Shown here: in pieces, positions 2,920 through 28,474 of the stretch
Position numbering within the stretch: position 1 is the first letter of the stretch
Layout of the letters: each line of letters starts with the position of its first letter
Origin: Dictyostelium discoideum
Taxonomy: Eukaryota
Direction: 5' to 3'
Assembly: GCA_000004695.1 (NCBI GenBank)
Contig: CM000150.2
Span: 2,400,001 to 2,464,000, forward strand
Length of the DNA stretch: 64,000 bases
Notes under the pieces: model-generated
Seen by the model: only the letters and a program-made list of their open reading frames with translations
Told to the model about the DNA's origin: nothing
Databases searched by the model: none
Program-made: the position numbers and the translations under genes

Positions 2920-3725
2920 GGTGGTTCGATAGGTTTTTCTGATTTTGTTTTAATTTCTTGATTGTTTATCGATTGTGTATTGATCTCATTCTCTATTCTT
3001 GTTAGTTCATCTACGTTTTCTAGTGATGCTTCTATTACCTTTTGAGCTGTATCATCTAGGGCCATAAATGTTTTATCATTAGATGAGGATGTGATTGGTG
3101 GGATAATGATTGTTCTTTTTCCTTGTTTTGGTATTTGTTCTGATGTAGATTGTGGTTGTTGTTCATCTGATTGTTTTTTATTTTTGTTTTCTTCTTGATT
3201 TTCTGGTAATGAGGTTTGATCTCTCCATCCTTTGTTGGAGTGTCCAATTAATGTTAGATTGTCTAGTTCAATGATAGTGTCAAATTCTTCTACGACTCTT
3301 TTCACTGTTTTGATAATTAGAGTTTCGCCTTTAATTTCTGATTTAATTAGTTTACATCCTTCATTTTCTATTACCCATTCTATTTCTGTGAGTGATTTAT
3401 ACCAATCAAAATCTGTATACATATTTTTTGGTCTTATAGTGGTTATAAATTGTCCTTTTAATTCTGCATCAAACATATTTACAAAATAGATTACTGTACT
3501 AATACTGTCTGTGAGAATTTTGAATGTATTATTACTTTTGATTAAAACATCTTTTTTGTCCAAACTTTTTTCTAAATCTTTTTTTATTTTATCGTCTGGT
3601 TCGTGATTGATGTTTATGACGTATTTGAATTGTTTTTTTTTTAATTGAGTTTTATCCACAATTTCGCTTATTTTTTGTAGGCATTTGTGTTGCTTAATAT
3701 TTGTGGTGTTGTTTGTGATTTTCAT
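2920..3725 (-). CDS. TRE5-A-type ORF1 (MKITNNTTNIKQHKCLQKISEIV...), C-terminal end lost in the N gap
   Basis: The same ORF recurs at 25241-25771 (C-terminal part ending ...EPPSPYNTPIK). Its first ~90 codons are also present in each B-module copy (12385-12660, 27593-27865). The track ORF 2814-3725 runs through the Ns. Confidence 0.6.
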
Positions 3726-3802
3726 TTTATTTTCTTTCTATCTTTTTTATTTTTCTTTAAAAAGTTAAAAATCTGGAAATTTTCTAATTAACTTGGTTCC
3801 CA

Positions 3803-3848
<46 letters not shown>

Positions 3849-3851
<3 letters not shown>

Positions 3852-4690
3852 TCTTTTTTATATGAAAAATGAAATAATCAAAAAAAGAGATTGTTGTTGT
3901 TGTTTGTTTTTTTCGATCTGATTATTTTTTGCTTTTTTTTTGAAAATTTTGCTACGCAAAATTCTCAAAACGAAACAAATAATAAATTACAATAAAGTAA
4001 AAAGATGGCTTTTTAAAATAGTTTATTTATTTATTTATTTGTTTTTTAAGTCTTTTTTATATGAAAAATGAAATAATCAAAAAAAGAGATTGTTGTTGTT
4101 GTTTGTTTTTTTCGATCTGATTATTTTTTGCTTTTTTTTTGAAAATTTTGCTACGCAAAATTCTCAAAACGAAACAAATAATAAATTACAATAAAGTAAA
4201 AAGATGGCTTTTTAAAATAGTTTATTTATTTATTTATTTGTTTTTTAAGTCTTTTTTATATGAAAAATGAAATAATCAAAAAAAGAGATTGTTGTTGTTG
4301 TTTGTTTTTTTCGATCTGATTATTTTTTGCTTTTTTTTTGAAAATTTTGCTACGCAAAATTCTCAAAACGAAACAAATAATAAATTACAATAAAGTAAAA
4401 AGATGGCTTTTTAAAATAGTTTATTTATTTATTTATTTGTTTTTTAAGTCTTTTTTATATGAAAAATGAAATAATCAAAAAAAGAGATTGTTGTTGTTGT
4501 TTGTTTTTTTCGATCTGATTATTTTTTGCTTTTTTTTTGAAAATTTTGCTACGCAAAATTCTCAAAACGAAACAAATAATAAATTACAATAAAGTAAAAA
4601 GATGGCTTTTTAAAATAGTTTATTTATTTATTTATTTGTTTTTTAAGTCTTTTTTATATGAAAAATGAAATAATCAAAAAAAGAGATTGA
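3849..4690. repeat. 199-bp tandem repeat, about 4.2 units (A-module array of TRE5-A)
   Basis: The unit aagtcttttttatatgaaaaatgaaataatc... restarts at 3849, 4048, 4247, 4446 and 4645 (period 199). The same unit in reverse complement is found at 12003-12290 and 24915-25250. Confidence 0.85.
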
Positions 4691-4736: not shown

Positions 4737-4808
4737 GGCTCCTTAGCATAGTGGTATTGCGCTTCCCTAGTAAGGAAGAGGTCATGAGTTCGATCCTCAT
4801 AGGAGCCT
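4737..4808 (+). tRNA. tRNA-Thr (anticodon AGU)
   Basis: GGCTCCT/AGGAGCC acceptor stem; A box TAGCATAGTGG; anticodon stem CTTCC/GGAAG with loop CTAGTAA; T arm ATGAG-TTCGATC-CTCAT (B box GGTCATGAGTTCGATCC). Folded by eye. Confidence 0.8.
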
Positions 4809-10093: not shown

Positions 10094-10208
10094 TTTTTTT
10101 TTTTTTTTTACCTGTGATCAGACCTTCAAGGAATGTCCTTGTGTCTTTTCAGCGGTGTTTGTTAAACGATTTTATTTTTATTATTCAATTGTATTAAATT
10201 TTTTAAAC

Positions 10209-10254
<46 letters not shown>

Positions 10255-10847
10255 ACTACTTAAATTGGAAGAGGGTTCGGAGCTGCTGGAGTTTGCCAGG
10301 CTTTGTTGAATTTGTATTTGTGAAGATCTTGATTGGTGTTTTTTAGTATTGCTTCGTCGTGTTTGATTTTCTTTAGTGTGATGAATTTTTCAGTTTCGAT
10401 GAGATTTAGTAATTCTGTTTCTATGACCTTTTGTTCGAATTTTGGCTCTGGTTTGCTTTCATCAGTGTTGAACAATTTGTGACAGATTATCTTCCATAAT
10501 TGGTGTGCTATTATTCCTATGAGATTGGGGAAGATTCTCTCAGTTCTGTTGTATTTTGATATGTCTAAGGTATCCATTGACCATCTGTGGATTTTGATGA
10601 ATGATAATTTGTTAACTGTTGATATGATGGTTTTTTCAATATATAGGATATCTTGGCATAGAGTGAAGAGGTGAGAATAAGGGTCTCTGAATAGGTGGCC
10701 ACAGATCTTGCATCTGGTGTCTCTTTCGTGGTTGATACCTGGAAGTGATCTTGAGAAGAATCTGAAGAGGGTGTTTCTACCTTTTTGGTGAGAAATGCTG
10801 TTGATGTTTATGAATACTTTGGGTATTGCTGTGTTGTATCTCACCAT
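10094..10847 (-). mobile_element. TRE3-type element, 5'-truncated 0.75-kb copy (ORF2 C-terminus + C-module-like 3' end + oligo(A)), with a 15-bp TSD
   Basis: RC of the same 3' end as 7260-7542 (cctgtgatcagaccttcaaggaatgtccttgtg...). T-run at 10094-10111. TSD tttcattatcttttc at 10079-10093 and 10848-10862. Confidence 0.7.
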
Positions 10848-10899: not shown

Positions 10900-11870
10900 T
10901 TTTTTTTTTTTTTTTTTTTTTTGATATAAATAAACTATTGTAGTATACAATTAGTATGTTATTTTTATTTATTTATTTTAGGTTTTTTAGTTTTTGTGAA
11001 TTTAAAATAGTATGTTATTTTAGATTAGGTAATTAATAATTAATTGGTGGTGTAATTGTTGGAATTGGTTCATTAGTGTTTATGCTCCATTCTTTTTTAA
11101 ATTTTTTGATGGTTTCGGACCATTGGGTTTCTTTTTGAGTTTTTGTGAGGTTGTTTTTAATTGAGAATTGGTTAAAGTTTGATAACCTTTTTGAATATTC
11201 CAATCTTATTAGCTTGTGCCATTTTGATTTTAATATATCATAATCTAGTGTTGTGTTGTTTATTTGGTTGTTCCAATTGTCAATTGATTGAGTTATATTG
11301 ATGTCAAATAATGATTTGCATAACCATATCCATATTTGGTGAATAACTAATGAGATTATGTTCCAATATGCATGTGTTCTGACTAGATCAAGATTTGTGT
11401 TTATATAATTCCAGTTGAACCTGTATTTTTTATATTGTGCGTTTTCTGCAAAATGAAAATTAATATTGATAGTTGGATCTGGTTTAAATGCTTTGTTGTT
11501 TGTTTGTGGTTTATAAATGAGTGTGTATAATTTTGTTGTTTGGTTTTTTGTTAGTGACCAGTTTTTGTTTCCATTGCAATTTTTATATATAAAATATTTT
11601 AATTTGTCGTGGTTAATGAAGTTGATTGTGTGCTGGCAATTGAAAAACAAATGACCATAGGGATCATTATTCATTTCATTGTTGCAAATGGGGCAAACTT
11701 TGTTGTGTAGATGATTAATCGGAAGACATCTAGCATGGAATCTTTGCATTGTATCTCGGCCTTTTGGATCTTTTAATTTTTGAATTTTGACAAAAAGTTG
11801 GTCGTATGTGTATTTCCATAATAGTTGTATTGATTGTTGGTAATTAAAAAAAAAAAAATCCTCTAAAAAA
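10900..11870 (-). mobile_element. 3' fragment of a distinct TRE-family element (ORF2 C-terminal zinc-finger region ...NEPIPTITPPINY*, ~110-bp 3' UTR, oligo(A)). It starts about 28 bp downstream of tRNA-Trp in the same orientation.
   Basis: Residues KGRDTMQRFHARCLPINHLHNKVCPICNNEMNNDPYGHLFFNC and HQIWIWLCKSLFD are homologous to the Zn-finger/C-terminal region of the TRE3-type ORF2s but clearly a different subfamily. The T-run at 10900-10921 is the poly(A) tail. Track ORF 11033-11932 runs on spuriously through the tRNA. Confidence 0.55.
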
Positions 11871-11873
11871 GAC

Positions 11874-11960
11874 AGACCCCTCAGGGAGTTGAACCCTGGA
11901 CCAACTGCTAACTTCTTACGTTTTGGAGACAATTACAATAAACCACTATGCTAAGGAGTC
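11874..11960 (-). tRNA. tRNA-Trp (anticodon CCA) with a ~13-nt intron 3' of the anticodon loop
   Basis: RC sequence: GACTCCT TA GCATAGTGGTTTAT TGT A ATTGT CTCCAA [AACGTAAGAAGTT] A GCAGT TGGTC CAGGG TTCAACT CCCTG AGGGGTC T. The acceptor stem pairs (with one G-U). The T arm carries a B box. A TTTTTT terminator lies immediately downstream (11867-11873). Confidence 0.7.
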
Positions 11961-12002
11961 ATTGAAAACCAAATGGTTGACACACTTTGATAACCCGCCA
12001 TT

Positions 12003-12272
12003 TATTTCGATCGATCGAAAAAAACAAACAACAACAATCTCTTTTTTTGATTATTTCATTTTTCATATAAAAAAGACTTAAAAAACAAATAAATAAATAA
12101 ATAAACTATTTTAAAAAGCCATCTTTTTACTTTATTGTAATTTATTATTTGTTTCGTTTTGAGAATTTTGCGTAGCAAAATTTTCAAAAAAAAAGCAAAA
12201 AATAATCAGATCGAAAAAAACAAACAACAACAATCTCTTTTTTTGATTATTTCATTTTTCATATAAAAAAGA

Positions 12273-12308
<36 letters not shown>

Positions 12309-12748
12309 GGAACCCAAGTTAATCAGAAAATTTCCAGATTTTTAACTTTTTAAAGAAAAATAAAAAAAATAGAAAGAAAATAAGATGAAAATCACAAACA
12401 ACACCACAAATATTAAGCAACACAAATGCCTACAAAAAATAAGCGAAATTGTGGATAAAACTCAATTAAAAAAAAAACAATTCAAATACGTCATAAACAT
12501 CAATCACGAACCAGACGATAAAATAAAAAAAGATTTAGAAAAAAGTTTGGACAAAAAAGATGTTTTAATCAAAAGTAATAATACAATTCAAAATTCGAAA
12601 CAAAAAAAAAAAAAAAAAAAAAAAAAAGGTAAACCAACCCCTCTTTTAGAGACCCTGTAAAAAAAAAAAAAATAAAATAAAATGAGATCTAGCATCTCAA
12701 GGAGAAGCAAATAATAATTGCGTTATCCAATTCAAAAAAAAAAAAAAA
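12003..12748 (+). mobile_element. TRE5-A-type non-autonomous internal-deletion derivative: A-module x1.4, oligo(A), B-module (with the first ~90 codons of ORF1), A-run, C-module, oligo(A). It is 42 bp upstream of tRNA-Trp, head-to-head.
   Basis: A-module (reverse form) 12003-12290; A-run 12291-12311; cctgggaacccaagttaatcag...ATG MKITNN... 12312-12620; ggtaaaccaacccctcttttagagaccctgtaa + A15 + ataaaataaaatgagatct...ttatccaattc + A18, ending ~12748. The same B+C block terminates the full copy at 27521-27968. Confidence 0.6.
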
Positions 12749-13343
12749 TTTATATTTTTGTGGGTGACATGCTTTATATAGGTGAATACAATTACAATAA
12801 ACCACTATGCTAAGGAGTTATTGAAAACCAAATGGGTTAAACTCTTCGATTAAATTATCAAAATATAAAAAGCTAAGTTAAATATAAAAATAAATTAAAA
12901 TATACTTGTTAACTAAATTGCATTAGACCACTTTCCTTACACATGTAAAGAATGCTCTATTTCCTGCCCACAGCTTCTTGAATGAAAAAATTTAACCACG
13001 GGAGTTATGAATAAATATCTTGAATTCATTGAAACTGATAAAATCTAATTGTGTCTGGGAAGGTTGAACAGAATTTTGAATTCAAAATTAATATTATAAC
13101 TATAATTAATAAATAAAAAAATAAATAGATAATTAAAATTATAAAATACTTTAAGAATATATATAATTTCTAAAAGTAATTTTAGAAATAATAATTATAG
13201 GAATGAACCATCTTCGATACAATTTAATAAGTGTAATGAATACTCTAATACTTTACATGACACTTTAAATATTAATTTACACTTACTACTACTTTCCTTG
13301 AAAAAATGAAATAAACATCTTTGGGTTATTCCCTAAAAAGAAG

Positions 13344-13461
13344 ACACCTTAGCAAAGTGTATAACCCATTTGGTTTTCGATGACACCCAAGCAAAGTTTT
13401 TTACCCATTAGGTTATCTATGACAGTTTAGCGAAGTGTATTACCCATTTAGTATTCCTTAA
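13344..13461 (+). repeat. Three tandem ~39-bp units, each built from the first ~17 nt of tRNA-Ser (A box TTAGCAAAGTGG) plus the ~22-bp 5' leader (cccatttggttttcgat)
   Basis: gacaccttagcaaagtgtataacccatttggttttcgat / gacacccaagcaaagttttttacccattaggttatctat / gacagtttagcgaagtgtattacccatttagtattcctta. Compare the true gene at 14193-14235. RC copies at 27969-28082 and 24874-24914. Confidence 0.6.
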
Positions 13462-13466
13462 CAACT

Positions 13467-13870
13467 TTTTTTTGAATTGGATAACGCAATTATTAGTTGC
13501 TTCTCCTTGAGATGCAAGATCTCATTTTATTTGTAGTTTTTTACAGGGTCTCTAAAAGAGGGGTTAGTTTACTTTTTTTTTTTTTTTTTTTTTTGTTTCA
13601 AATTTTGAATTGTATTATTACTTTTGATTAAAACATCTTTTTTTCCCAAACTTTTTTCTAAATCTTTTTTTATTTTATCGTCTAGTTCGTGACTGATGTT
13701 GATGATATATTTGAATTGTTTTTTTTTATTTGAGTTTTATCCACAATTTCGCTTATTTTTTGTTGGCATTTGTGCTTAACTTGGTTGCCAGGTTTTTTTT
13801 TTTTTTTTTTTATTTTTTTTTTTTTTTTAGTCTTTTTATATGAAAAATGAAATAATCAAAAAAAGATACC
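13467..13870 (-). mobile_element. TRE5-A-type B-module + C-module fragment with the last 35 bp of an A-module (minus orientation), carrying a small deletion at the ORF1 start
   Basis: RC of the C-module (13475-13560), T-run, RC of the B-module/ORF1 start with an internal deletion (cctggcaaccaagttaag|cacaaatgcc), T-run 13789-13835, then the A-module end aagtctttttatatgaaaaatgaaataatcaaaaaaag. Confidence 0.5.
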
Positions 13871-14176
13871 TCCACCAAAGAATAAGTAACACTCCTACTT
13901 CATATATAAAACTGTGGGAAGAGGAACTCAAAAACAACAACAACAACAAAACAACAACAACAAAACAAAATCAACTACACTGGCAATGCAAGCAAGCATG
14001 GACCCAATTAAAAACTCCACAAAATAAACAAACACACTACGAAAACCTCCCAAAATTAAAAAAAATATACGAGGATATGATGACAACCCAATCTCCAGAA
14101 CACAACAAATTCATACCAACTCCTGGCCAAAAAGAAATAATTACCAAAATTAATAGCAAACACCTTCCTTTCCCTT
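13871..14176 (+). pseudogene. Internal TRE5-A-type ORF2 fragment (~100 codons, YLHQRISNTPTSYIKLWEEEL...KHLPF), fused to the A-module on its 5' side and to the tRNA-Ser leader on its 3' side at short microhomologies
   Basis: ~95% identical to 26563-26875 of the ORF2 copy. The 5' junction is at aaaaaaaga|tacctcc (shared aaga). The 3' junction is at cacctt|cc.. vs caccttagcaaagt. Track ORF 13840-14178 begins in the A-module (MKNEIIKK). Confidence 0.55.
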
Positions 14177-14215
14177 GACAACTTAGCAAAGTATTTTACC
14201 CATTTGATATTCGAT

Positions 14216-14296
14216 GACACCTTAGCAAAGTGGTTAATGCGGCGCCCTGCTAAGGCGTTCTCTTCGGAGGCGCAGGTTCGAACCCTGCAGGTGTCG
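14216..14296 (+). tRNA. tRNA-Ser (anticodon GCU), with a long variable arm
   Basis: GACACCT TA GCA AAGTGGTTAA TGC G GCGCC CTGCTAA GGCGT TCTCTTCGGAGGC GCAGG TTCGAAC CCTGC AGGTGTC G. The G73 discriminator is typical of tRNA-Ser. Confidence 0.85.
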
Positions 14297-14321
14297 AATT
14301 TTTAACTTCCAAACCTGAATA

Positions 14322-15180: not shown

Positions 15181-15580
15181 AAAAAAAATTCAATAAAGTT
15201 TATTGAATAAACCTTAGAATTTTTAAATAAAACAGCATTTCAAAAAACAAATTTAATTAAAATTAAATAATAAAATAAAATAAATAAAAAAATAAATATT
15301 TGAAAAAAATAATACATATTTTCATTAAAGTTTTGAAAAAACATAAAATTCTTTTCACACATTCTAAAATGAAATCGAACCAATTTTTTCTTTAGGATGA
15401 TAGTTTGTTTTGATATTTTAAATTTATTTTTAATATTTAAACTCTTTGATTTTAATTTTTGTTAATCAGTTAAACATAAATTAATATAAATATAAATAAT
15501 TATAAATTAATAAATAATATAAATAATCATAAATTAAAAATCATTTTTTTTTTAAAAAAAAATATATATATAAAAAAAGA

Positions 15581-15866
15581 ATGACAAAATTAAAAGTTGG
15601 AAATATTGCACCAGATTTTGAAGCTAAAAACTATTTAGGTCAAACAGTTACATTAAAAGAATTTAAAGAAAAGAGTCAACCAATCGTTTTATATTTTTAT
15701 CCAAAAGATAATAGTCCAGTATGTACAAAAGGTAAGTCAATTTATATTATTACATAATTCAATAAACTTAAATGTTTTTTTTTTTAATATACTAATAATA
15801 AAATAACCTTTTAAATATAATAAAATTACCAACATACATACATACATACATACATACATACATACA

Positions 15867-15899
<33 letters not shown>

Positions 15900-24753: not shown

Positions 24754-24792
24754 TATTTTATTACGTGATAAAAAAAAGATAAAAAGATAGAT

Positions 24793-24873
24793 CGACACCT
24801 GCAGGGTTCGAACCTGCGCCTCCGAAGAGAACGCCTTAGCAGGGCGCCGCATTAACCACTTTGCTAAGGTGTC
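24793..24873 (-). tRNA. tRNA-Ser (anticodon GCU), second copy
   Basis: Exact reverse complement of the 14216-14296 gene. The 5' leader cccatttggttttcgat is conserved. Confidence 0.85.
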
Positions 24874-25240
24874 ATCGAAAACCAAATGGGTAATACACTT
24901 CATTTAACCAAATGTGTAAAGGAGATCGAAAAAAAACAAACAACAACAACAATCTCTTTTTTTGATTATTTCATTTTTCATATAAAAAAGACTTAAAAAA
25001 CAAATAAATAAATAAATAAACTATCTTAAAAAGCCATCTTTTTACTTTATTGTAATTTATTATTTGTTTCGTTTTGAGAATTTTGCGTAGCAAAATTTTC
25101 AAAAAAAAGCAAAAAATAATCAGATCGAAAAAAAACAAACAACAACAACAATCTCTTTTTTTGATTATTTCATTTTTCATATAAAAAAGACTTAAAAAAC
25201 AAATAAATAAATAAATAAACTATCTTAAAAAGCCATCTTT

Positions 25241-25771
25241 TTACTTTATTGGTGTATTGTATGGAGATGGTGGTTCAATAGGTTTTTCTGATTTTGTTTT
25301 AATTTCTTGATTTTTTATCGATTGGGTATTGATCTCATTCTCTATTCTTGTTAGTTCATCTACGTTTTCTAGTGATGCATCTATTACCTTTTGAGCTGTA
25401 TCATCTAGGGCCATAAATGTTTTATCATTAGATGAGGAGGTGATTGGTGGGATAATGATTGTTCTTTTTCCTTGTTTTGGTATTTGTTCTGATGTAGATT
25501 TTGGTTGTTGTTCATCTGATTGTTTTTTATTTTTGTTTTCTTCTTGATTTTCTGGTAATGAGGTTTGATCTCTCCATCCTTTGTTGGAGTGACCAATTAA
25601 TGTTAGATTGTCTAGTTCAATGATAGTATCATATTCTTCTACGACTCTTTTCACTGTTTTGATAATTAGAGTTTCGCCTTTAATTTCAGATTTAATTAGT
25701 TTACATCCTTCATTTTCTATTACCCATTCTATTTCTGTGAGTGATTTATACCAATCGAAATCCGTATACAT
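25241..25771 (-). pseudogene. Inverted 3' segment of TRE5-A-type ORF1 (…MYTDFDWYKSLTEIEWVIENEGCKLIKSEIKG…EPPSPYNTPIK*) inside the rearranged copy
   Basis: 94% identical to 2920-3470. The breakpoint at ~25800 runs into the plus-strand ORF2. Confidence 0.55.
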
Positions 25772-25799
25772 ATTTTTGGTCTTAGAGTGGTTATAAATT

Positions 25800-27457
25800 G
25801 TCCTTTTAAACTACCACTCAAAATGGTCCTCACAATAATGAACTTACTCAATGAATCAGAAACATCAGTGTACATCAATAACTCATTATCTAAAAGCTTT
25901 ACATCAAAAAGAGGAACCAAACAAGGTGATCCTATCTCTCCCACTATCTTCGCATTAGTGGTTGAATGCATGGCAACTACTATAATAAATGACCGCTGCA
26001 TCAATGGTGTAACCAAAGAAACCATTAAAATACTACAGTTCGCCGATGATACAGCAACAATAGCATACAACTTTATGGACCATTTCCTCATGAATGAATG
26101 GATCAAGAAGTTTTGCCAAGCAACCAGCGCAAAAATAAACCAAACCAAATGCTCGTGTATCACTTTCAAATGGAACACCAGAACGCTATACACCGTCATA
26201 AAATCAAACGAAAGGTACCTCGGCTTTGACTTCAACAATAAGGGTATCAAATCCAAAATCAATACAATCTCAGACAACATCAGAGCTAAACTAGTAACAT
26301 GGAACTCAACTTCATCAACCTATATGGGCAGACTCATAATGGCAAAAACATATGCACTATCTCAGTTAACGTTCCACACTTACATCAACACCACACCACA
26401 ACACAATAGTATTGAAAATAACATCGTAAAATTCGTTTTCAACACAAAATCTAAAAACTCTCTTTCACTACAAAGAAGACAAAACAACTATATCAATGGT
26501 GGCCTAAACTTATGGAACCTGAAGACAAGAGAACTAGCACAGAAAGCATGGTTATTCGAAAGATACCTCCACCAAAGAGTAAGTAACACTCCTAGTTCAT
26601 ATATAAAACTGTGGGAAGAGGAACTCAAAAACAACAACAACAACAAAACAACAACAAAACAAAATCAACTACAACTACACTGGCAATGCAAGCAAGCATG
26701 GACCCAATTAAAAACTCCACAAAATAAACAAACACATTACGAACACCTCCCAAAATTAAAAAAAATATACGAAGATATGATGACAACTCAATCTCCTGAA
26801 CACAACAAATTCATACCAACTCCTGGCCAAAAAGAAATAATGACCAAAATTAATAGCAAACACCTTCCATTTAAAGAAATCAAAAAAATAATAAACATGA
26901 AAGGTAGAGATCTATTATGGAGATACACACTGAAAGCACTACCAAAAATATACAACATGCCATGCCAACAGTGTGGGGAAGATGAGACCTCAGAACATAT
27001 ATTCTTCAACTGCAAAGCCCACATCAAAAACACACAAGAAATCTTCAACTACACCCTAACTAAGTGTGGACACACCACTCACACCTGGAATGTGAAGATT
27101 TTAAACCATCTACAAATTGCACTAGTAGCCAATTTAATAGCTATTATATTCGATAAAATCTGGCACAAAAGAAATAAACTCATTCACGATGAAAAAGAAA
27201 TAATAATTCACAGACAACAAGTCATACGTGAACTAATTAAAACACAAAGAGCTGCATGGGACAGGACACAAGCGGTTATAAACAAAACATTAAGAATCAA
27301 ATCAAAGCAACGGCCAGAAGAACAAAATAAATTAGACTCACTAATCTCGCTAAAGCTATTACAATTTAGCAGACAATGGAACTCACCTCTTCACGCAATA
27401 GAACTTCCTAAACATCTCAAAAAATACAATAATTCACTCAGTACTTTCTATAAATAA
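25800..27457 (+). CDS. TRE5-A-type ORF2, 3' part (RT C-terminal region and C-terminal domain with a Cys/His cluster)
   Basis: SKRGTKQGDPISPTIFALVVE, QFADDTATIA, ...NMPCQQCGEDETSEHIFFNCKAH. Same subfamily as 1-2819 and 13871-14176. Confidence 0.7.
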
Positions 27458-27516
<59 letters not shown>

Positions 27517-27968
27517 GGAACCCAAGTTAATCAGAAAATTTCCAGATTTTTAACTTTTTAAAGAAAAATATAAAAAATAGAAAGAAAATAAAATGAAAAT
27601 CACAAACAACACCACAAATATTAAGCAACACAAATGCCTACAAAAAATAAGCGAAATTGTGGATAAAACTCAATTAAAAAAAAAACAATTCAAATACGTC
27701 ATAAACATCAATCACGAACCAGACGATAAAATAAAAAAAGATTTAGAAAAAAGTTTGGACAAAAAAGATGTTTTAATCAAAAGTAATAATACAATTCAAA
27801 ATTCGAAACAAAAAAAAAAAAAAAAAAAAAAAAGTAAACTAACCCCTCTTTTAGAGACCCTGTAAAAAAAAAAAAAAAATAAAATAAAATGAGATCTAAC
27901 ATCTCAAGGAGAAGCAACTAATAATTGCGTTATCCAATTCAAAAAAAAAAAAAAAAAAAAAAAAAAAA

Positions 27969-28082
27969 CCAAATGTGTAATACACTTTGCTAAGGTGTCA
28001 TCGAAAACCAAATGGGTAATAAACTTTGCCAAGGTATCATCGAAAAATATTTGGTGATACACTTCGCTAAGGTGTCATTGAA
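27969..28082 (-). repeat. Three tandem ~39-bp tRNA-Ser leader/A-box units in reverse orientation, abutting the poly(A) end of the TRE5-A copy
   Basis: ccaaatgtgtaatacactttgctaaggtgtcatcgaaaaccaaatgggtaataaactttgccaaggtatcatcgaaaaatatttggtgatacacttcgctaaggtgtcattg is the RC of the unit seen at 13344-13461. Confidence 0.55.
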
Positions 28083-28474
28083 AAATAAACCACCACAAGA
28101 CTAATTTTTTAATTAATAATTTTTTTTTTAATTGTTTTATTGTTTTTTTTTTTTTTTTTTTTAAGACTGTGGCGCTGACTATAATAATTTTTGAACCTTT
28201 ATTGAAATATAATTAAAAAAATACAAAAAATAAAAATAATTAGTAAAGTGACTGTTTTTTTATTTTTATAAAAATATTTTATAATATAAGTTGTTTTCTT
28301 TATTTATTTGTTTATTTATTTATTTTAATTTTTTTTTATTTTAAAAAAAAAAAAGTTTAAAACTTTTAAAATTATTTAAACTTTAAGAATTATTGGAGTT
28401 ATTTGGAATATTATAAAACAAAAAAAAATTACAAAGGTGGGTGGATATGTGCAATTTATTATAAAAATTATTAT

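Follow-up and report, generated by a model that had tools for sequence, protein, structure and literature searches.

The 64-kb stretch of Dictyostelium discoideum DNA that we analyzed (hereafter the window) carries, at positions 12783–12850 on the minus strand, an unannotated truncated copy of a tRNA-Trp gene, which is a known kind of relic. This copy and the functional tRNA-Trp gene are separated by a TRE5-A retrotransposon. We consider that it is probably a dead 5′ relic, left by a local duplication or an unequal exchange that was older than the TRE5-A insertion and independent of it. The other interpretation, in which the two copies form a long target-site duplication (TSD) of the element, is not supported by the sequences that we compared.

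The functional tRNA-Trp(CCA) gene is located at 11874–11960 (minus strand). It was recovered by ARAGORN, by the Rfam tRNA model (RF00005, 44.3 bits), and by a B-box scan, which places a B-box-like sequence, GGTTCAACTCC, near 11885–11895. ARAGORN mislabels the gene as Leu-caa in the window and returns Trp-cca for the identical gene in strain ACTFIR (GCA_054859385.1, locus L005), a genome that is 88–93% identical to the window in alignable parts. As placed from the sequence, exon 1 occupies 11923–11960, a 13-nt intron 11910–11922, and exon 2 11874–11909. The leader between the gene and the TRE5-A element extends over 11961–12012 (minus strand), or over 48 nt only if an extra GATC at 12009–12012 is counted to the element, and its positions −1 to −39 form a degenerate 39-bp unit made of a T17-like part, GGCGGGTTATCAAAGTG, and of L22, TGTCAACCATTTGGTTTTCAAT. 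The gene-side copy of the repeat, delimited like the distal one by a repeat search and a register-locked identity table, covers tRNA nt 1–37 and leader −1 to −31 (11924–11991, minus strand); the last 21 nt of the leader (11992–12012) have no counterpart beside the distal copy. On the downstream side, other retroelement fragments adjoin the gene, at 11033–11749 (minus strand) and at 10094–10845, so that the tRNA-Trp gene has elements on both sides. A 238-aa ORF found downstream of the gene possesses a C-terminal Cys/His motif and resembles the end of a TRE3-type ORF2.

Aligned with 11924–11991, the distal copy is identical at 60 of 68 positions (88%). Within tRNA nt 1–32, 31 of the 32 nucleotides are conserved, the sole change being G1>A, and the leader −1 to −31 conserves 26 of its 31 nucleotides, i.e., five differences. 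The next five nucleotides (nt 33–37) are identical at three positions, and their membership in the copy is only possible. The initial annotation had counted six substitutions, which is correct for the 63-nt string 12788–12850 compared pairwise and in register with 11929–11991 (one in tRNA nt 1–32 and five in the leader), but the intervals that it gave, 12786–12850 and 11925–11990, are 2–4 nt off these limits. The homology stops abruptly inside the anticodon loop, and may end 1 nt short of the exon–intron border. Upstream of an intact A box (TTAGCATAGTGG), the copy shows the leader motif TTTAACCCATTTGGTTTTCAAT, followed by the tRNA-like 5′ end AACTCCTTAGCATAGTGG. No 3′ half was found, no B-box match is present within 150 nt (with up to two mismatches), and the copy elicits neither an ARAGORN call nor an Rfam match at E ≤ 1. 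It therefore associates a homology to one specific tRNA gene with the loss of the 3′ half and of the B box, as a truncated tRNA gene copy does. Since TFIIIC binding and TRE5-A targeting depend mainly on the B box (PMC5391098), a fragment possessing an A box only, with neither B box nor 3′ half, should be inert, i.e., unable to attract TFIIIC/TFIIIB efficiently or to yield a tRNA.

Several trivial origins were considered and rejected. The exact 31-nt core of the repeat, ACAATTACAATAAACCACTATGCTAAGGAGT, is found in the window only at 11929–11959 and 12788–12818, and 100 shuffles gave no match to it, even with three mismatches; this null expectation and the 88% repeat exclude chance similarity. 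A metagenome scan for the same 31-mer returned no match. An assembly artefact is excluded by GCA_054883475.1 (locus L002), an independent D. discoideum assembly, 99.7% identical to the window over 20.7 kb, which displays the same arrangement and differs only in two homopolymer lengths inside the TRE5-A element. A larger segmental duplication, which the initial annotation had named among the findings that would speak against its reading, was not found and is excluded as well. Indeed, the homology is confined to about 68 nt and falls to the background level within 10 nt on either side, the identity in register being 5/21 for leader −32 to −52 and 8/35 for tRNA nt 38–72. Lastly, the copy is unlikely to be a retro-copy of a tRNA half or of the 5′ exon, because it includes at least 31 nt of upstream leader; its position, antisense to TRE5-A and on the 3′ side of the element, also disfavors such an origin. 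D. discoideum is without processed pseudogenes, and TRE5-A requires its own C-module hairpin (PMC3159450). The presence of the upstream leader and this absence of processed pseudogenes argue for an origin at the DNA level. Hence, with its 60/68 identity, its 31-nt exact core, and its recovery in a second assembly, the partial duplicate first noticed (5′ half plus leader) is real.

As also noticed at first, the two copies flank a TRE5-A A-B-C derivative on opposite sides. This non-autonomous element, 736 bp long (12013–12748, plus strand), is oriented with its 5′ end toward that of the tRNA. Along the plus strand, it is composed of one and a third A-modules (12013–12208, then a partial second one at 12209–12275), an A-run (12276–12304), a B-module-like part which includes the ORF1 start (12305–12601), a second A-run (12602–12627), a C-module (12628–12733), and a poly(A) of 15 A's (12734–12748), these module borders being approximate. 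With an A-module at its 5′ end, a B-module, and a C-module plus oligo(A) at its 3′ end, it belongs to the A-B-C class of TRE5-A, whose module scheme is AB-ORF1/ORF2-BC (PMC3159450). The 5′ end, at 12009/12013, is located 48–52 nt from tRNA nt 1 (11960), in opposite orientation, and not at the 42 bp first reported. The element thus shows the placement at about 47 bp upstream, with its 5′ end toward the tRNA 5′ end, that is typical of TRE5-A, which integrates 47 ± 3 bp from tRNA genes in a strictly orientation-specific manner (PMC5391098).

The sequence of the element is very close to that of its relatives. Its parts show 96–100% identity to TRE5-A copies located elsewhere in the window or in locus L003, i.e., 99–100% to the A-modules at 3894–4689, 96% to 3518–3845, 97.9% to 27484–27955, and 97.5% to L003 7129–7598, and only 3–5 substitutions per 475–605 nt (1% or less) separate it from its closest sister copies. 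The 3894–4689 copy itself (minus strand), upstream of the tRNA-Thr gene at 4737–4808, shows a TRE5-A 5′ end with four tandem A-modules at a 199-bp period, and its body runs into an assembly gap (N run 2819–2919).

According to the initial annotation, the element was bracketed by its own duplication of about 65 bp. The Trp repeat does share with TRE5-A TSDs the general geometry, namely direct repeats flanking a TRE5-A which is located upstream of a tRNA gene, about 50 bp away, and whose 5′ end points toward this gene; nevertheless, the proposal fails on abutment, divergence, length, and membership in a repeat family. The TSDs of TRE5-A at 33 de novo loci measure 10–16 bp (PMC9012585); a real TSD of this kind touches the element and has the same age as the insertion, whereas the Trp repeat measures 63–68 nt, stands off the element on both sides, and is far more diverged than the element. 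On the 5′ side, 21 unrelated nucleotides (11992–12012) intervene. On the 3′ side, the copy had been described as lying directly after the poly(A), but the end of the poly(A) is followed by 34–39 unrelated nucleotides (12749–12787). As for age, the two leaders differ at 5 of 31 positions (16%), against 1% or less between the element and its sisters; the binomial probability of at least five differences in 31 is 1.4 × 10−5 to 7 × 10−3 at a per-site divergence of 1–4%.

A giant TSD of the present TRE5-A, produced by nicks staggered by about 65–80 nt into the tRNA gene, consequently seems highly improbable to us. Both copies do have the same orientation on opposite sides of an element which shows no convincing short TSD, and extra nucleotides are known at TRE5-A 5′ junctions (PMC3159450). 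However, this scenario requires about 21 untemplated nucleotides at the 5′ junction in addition to the 34–39 extra ones after the poly(A); it leaves a 16% divergence in the neutral part of copies that surround an element diverged by 1% or less; it departs from the 10–16-nt TSDs seen both at the other insertions that we examined and at the 33 published de novo events (PMC9012585); and the leader of the distal copy is as similar to the units of the tRNA-Ser arrays described below as to its supposed twin. The only candidate for a TSD proper to the element is weak and of low complexity: ATTTAT[A]TTT, 8–9 nt, formed by TTTATATTT at the start of the spacer and ATTTATTT at 12000–12007. The lack of a clean TSD counts against the reading that we prefer, i.e., an older relic; the flank may have been rearranged later.

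Three other TRE5-A insertions have both flanks readable, and their TSDs are ordinary ones of 10–12 bp. A 3-kb TRE5-A (24924–27968), located 50 bp upstream of a tRNA-Ser(GCU) gene at 24792–24873 (minus strand; Ser2), has a 12-bp TSD, TTACACATTTGG in the tRNA sense, at 24908–24919 and 27969–27980. A TRE5-A at 13466–14168 (minus strand), upstream of the tRNA-Ser(GCU) gene at 14216–14297 (Ser1), has a TSD of about 10 bp that can be reconstructed as CCTT[G/A]ACAAC. The third, a 5′-truncated TRE5-A upstream of a tRNA-Met gene in L003, has a 12-bp TSD, TTAATAAATATA, and no tRNA fragment is present past its poly(A).

The two Ser elements are rearranged internally. In the Ser1 element, a 5′-truncated A-B-C part (13466–13866, minus strand) is joined to 13867–14168 (plus strand), which is a 302-nt piece of ORF2 running in the other direction and matches 26564–26868 at 95% identity; this structure resembles a 5′ inversion of the twin-priming type. 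In the Ser2 element, an ORF1 fragment (176-aa ORF, 25241–25771, minus strand) is carried on the strand opposite to that of the A-modules, the ORF2 part, and the poly(A), an orientation which corresponds either to an internal inversion or to a composite of two copies.

The surroundings of the Trp and Ser genes contain a family of 39-bp repeats, each unit consisting of the first 17 nt of a tRNA, A box included, and of a 22-nt leader (..ACCCATTTGGTTTTCRAT). Four or five of these units are found upstream of each tRNA-Ser(GCU) gene. At Ser1, three tandem units (tRNA-Ser 17 nt plus 22-nt leader; 13343–13459, plus strand, from the repeat search and the sequence) form the distal part of the array of the gene at 14216–14297, from which the TRE5-A at 13466–14168 separates them, and a fourth unit (14177–14215) abuts this gene. 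At Ser2, about three tandem units (27969–28085, minus strand) follow just past the poly(A) of the element, and the gene side of the array covers 24874–24919. At both Ser genes, TRE5-A is inserted inside the array, about 45–50 bp from the true gene. A search with the 21-mer ACCCATTTGGTTTTCGATGAC, allowing up to three mismatches, recovers seven sites in the window for none expected, all of them Trp or Ser units. They comprise the two Trp copies, the two tRNA-Ser(GCU) genes, and further sites on the poly(A) side of the TRE5-A associated with each of these Ser genes.

With its 22-nt motif preceding a tRNA-like 5′ end that contains an A box, the distal Trp copy belongs to the same family. This motif matches the Ser unit u1 at 20 of 22 positions and the real Trp leader at 19 of 22, and the 39 nt upstream of the Trp fragment match the Ser units at 28–29 of 39 positions and the real Trp leader at 27 of 39. 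Since the leader is as close to the Ser units as to the Trp leader, only the 32-nt tRNA part is specific to Trp. In a survey of the 19 tRNA genes present in all the loci compared, upstream copies of the first 17 nt (up to three substitutions) were found only at the Trp gene of the window and at Ser(GCU) genes; the 11-nt copy at the tRNA-Thr gene of L005, described below, is under this length threshold.

The 39-bp units also exist outside the window. In L005, two Ser units (about 11749–11830) directly adjoin the Ser gene, and no TRE5-A intervenes; D. cf. discoideum (L010) has units at a 39-bp spacing (11862–11978 and 12539), and its Ser gene has an LTR-like element 11 bp upstream. Such units are absent at two D. 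citrinum Ser(GCU) loci. As judged from this distribution, the 39-bp arrays do not depend on TRE5-A. Within each genome, moreover, the Trp leader resembles the Ser-array unit of the same genome: 11961–11999 and 13343–13381 of the window share ..CCATTTGGTTTTCAAT, and the L005 Trp leader (13462–13560) and Ser units (11749–11790) share ..C[T/C]CAAAAA..GAT. This likeness suggests concerted evolution or gene conversion between neighboring upstream regions. A literature search for a 5′-flank consensus, for "ex-B", or for TRE5-A.3 found nothing in the collection of papers that it covered.

Another element end, ..GAAGTTGGAATACGACGTTCATTACA, is located 11–13 nt upstream of tRNA-Ser, tRNA-Gly, and tRNA-Phe genes in D. 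cf. discoideum (L010, about 12570–12966; L011, upstream of 13353; L008, upstream of 7665; L009, upstream of 4639). It may be the LTR of a DGLT-A-like, i.e., Ty3-like, tRNA-targeting retrotransposon, which it fits.

From these data, we infer a recombinational origin of the copy and an order of events, the latter being deduced from geometry and from divergence, that is, from small mismatch counts. The region between the divergently oriented tRNA-Trp and tRNA-Ser(GCU) genes would have been built from the 39-bp repeat family. An unequal exchange or a local duplication in this zone would have copied the leader and the first 32–37 nt of the Trp gene, generating a unit of the 39-bp type with a longer tRNA part (32–37 nt); alternatively, a full tandem copy of the Trp gene may have arisen and been truncated afterwards. 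The copy would then have drifted. In a third step, a non-autonomous TRE5-A, mobilized in trans, would have used target-primed reverse transcription (TPRT) to insert at the TFIIIB-defined site, 48–52 bp upstream of the gene, and this insertion between the gene and the relic would have placed them 0.74 kb apart.

The fragment could, with a lower probability that we nonetheless judge appreciable, be the remnant of a complete second tRNA-Trp gene. In this scenario, a tandem pair existed, the upstream copy lost everything from about nt 33–38 onward by deletion or by local inversion, and TRE5-A came between the two. Near-identical tRNA pairs do occur here, as the two tRNA-Ser(GCU) genes of the window, 10 kb apart, are such a pair; the region is rearranged relative to L005, with an inverted Trp gene and an inverted Ser pair flanking the prxB-Rab segment; the abrupt end of the homology in the anticodon loop looks like a deletion breakpoint; and the absence of a clean TSD at the Trp element is compatible with a later loss of flanking DNA. 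On the other hand, no trace of a 3′ half (8/35 in register) and no B box within 150 nt are left, and, as the Ser genes show, copies in this region usually arise already partial, as tandem units of 17 nt and a leader. This second-gene origin and the preferred reading, a relic of local duplication or unequal exchange, disagree on a single point, namely how the copy came to be partial.

The spacer between the poly(A) and the distal copy, TTTATATTTTTGTGGGTGACATGCTTTATATAGG, comprises 34 nt (12749–12782), or 39 nt when counted to the exact core at 12788. It shows no relation to the tRNA, to the element, to the rest of the window, or to the 11 other loci compared, and a sensitive BLAST of the AT-rich spacers against other loci returned low-complexity noise only. 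A 3′ transduction, also considered as its source, found no support within the window and the 11 loci, where the spacer has no second copy.

Events at tRNA 5′ ends are visible in strain ACTFIR. Its Trp gene (L005, 13375–13461, minus strand) has a micro-insertion upstream (13462–13516), composed of about 23 nt of the end of a TRE5-A C-module and 10 A's, with a 15-nt TSD, AAAAAAAGATGACTC, that includes tRNA nt 1–5; this insertion, about 10–18 nt upstream of the tRNA, is far closer than the canonical 47 bp. At the tRNA-Thr gene (15352–15423, minus strand), the upstream region (15424–15635) contains at 15605–15635 a distal copy of the ancestral leader and of tRNA nt 1–11, and an AT-rich insert of about 176 nt lies between 16-nt repeats, AAAATGGCTCCTTAGC, which include these tRNA nt 1–11. 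An insertion seems to have entered the 5′ end of this gene, which its TSD then restored; the insert has no matching element in the loci compared.

In a similar way, the Trp repeat may have been the TSD of an older, now unrecognizable micro-insertion (an abortive retroelement) at the tRNA 5′ end, the spacer of about 40 nt being what remains of the insert, but we regard this as rather improbable. The ACTFIR duplications at Trp (15 nt, nt 1–5) and at Thr (16 nt, nt 1–11) show that such events happen, and without the present element the Trp copies would be only about 40 nt apart. However, the required TSD of 65–70 nt is four times the 10–16 nt of TRE5-A (PMC9012585), and the spacer, with neither poly(A) nor poly(T), is unlike the TRE5-A 3′ end or any element compared. 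It is also conceivable, although about equally doubtful, that one recurrent process, i.e., retroelement integrations, or breaks caused by them, at or near tRNA 5′ ends that duplicate the leader and the tRNA 5′ end, produced both the Trp fragment and the 39-bp arrays. If so, the 15- and 16-nt duplications of ACTFIR would represent the small end of a spectrum, and the 65-nt Trp repeat its large end.

No empty-site allele, with the fragment beside the gene and no element, was found among the assemblies examined; the exact protein matches of the window's own genes lead only to GCA_054883475.1, which carries the same TRE5-A insertion. In L005, the Trp gene is present, the sequence upstream of it cannot be aligned with the window, and the 32-nt fragment is absent in 20 kb. 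This absence means that the fragment is either specific to the lineage of the window or lost in L005. No Trp gene was found within 10 kb in L006 (D. citrinum), and the L010 sequence stops before the Trp locus, 633 nt after its last peroxiredoxin gene. Furthermore, the Trp gene is inverted relative to the Thr and peroxiredoxin (prx) genes in the window compared with L005, and this difference in gene order implies a history more complex than a single duplication. More generally, 4737–29500 of the window, where an inverted tRNA-Ser(GCU) pair flanks a peroxiredoxin-B/Rab (prxB-Rab) segment and where three to four peroxiredoxin paralogues are found, appears, relative to L005 and L010, as a rearrangement hotspot around tRNA genes and retroelements. 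In the same segment, a match to Rfam mir-297 at 15835–15899 (39 bits, far under the gathering score of 90) was rejected as a miRNA; it is actually a (TATG)n microsatellite in a peroxiredoxin gene intron.

The arrangement recalls several known systems. LINE-1-type elements generate unusually long TSDs, of tens to hundreds of bp. Such TSDs would surround a poly(A) retroelement with long direct repeats, as here, but they begin immediately behind the poly(A) and their two copies are initially identical, and neither holds at the Trp locus. Bacterial genomic islands inserted at tRNA genes leave an intact tRNA on one side and a partial copy on the other. The same disposition is reported for the Dada DNA transposons of eukaryotic tRNA and snRNA genes (PMC3706591). 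In these systems, the element itself is described as supplying or restoring the tRNA part, with repeats that adjoin its ends; at the Trp locus, on the contrary, a TPRT retrotransposon is located 48–52 bp outside the gene, and neither repeat reaches it. There is also a likeness with eukaryotic tRNA pseudogene fragments, which have no 3′ half or B box, are missed by tRNA finders, and lie near an intact paralogue. The Trp fragment differs from them in that it carries the upstream leader, as expected for a DNA-level copy, and belongs to a local 39-bp family. According to the tRNAscan-based annotation, D. discoideum has just three tRNA pseudogenes, and no Trp pseudogene is among them (PMC13063481).

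In conclusion, this analysis removes an apparent exception to the rule of 10–16-bp TSDs for TRE5-A and reveals an unannotated tRNA-Trp fragment in a Dictyostelium region that is prone to rearrangement and rich in tRNA genes and retroelements; taken alone, the fragment matters little. The fixed distance that TRE5-A keeps is measured to the intact gene, not to the units that have an A box only, and this constitutes a natural illustration of the published conclusion that a B box is required for targeting. More noteworthy than the Trp fragment itself are the tandem 39-bp arrays that precede tRNA-Ser(GCU) genes in three lineages of the D. discoideum complex.
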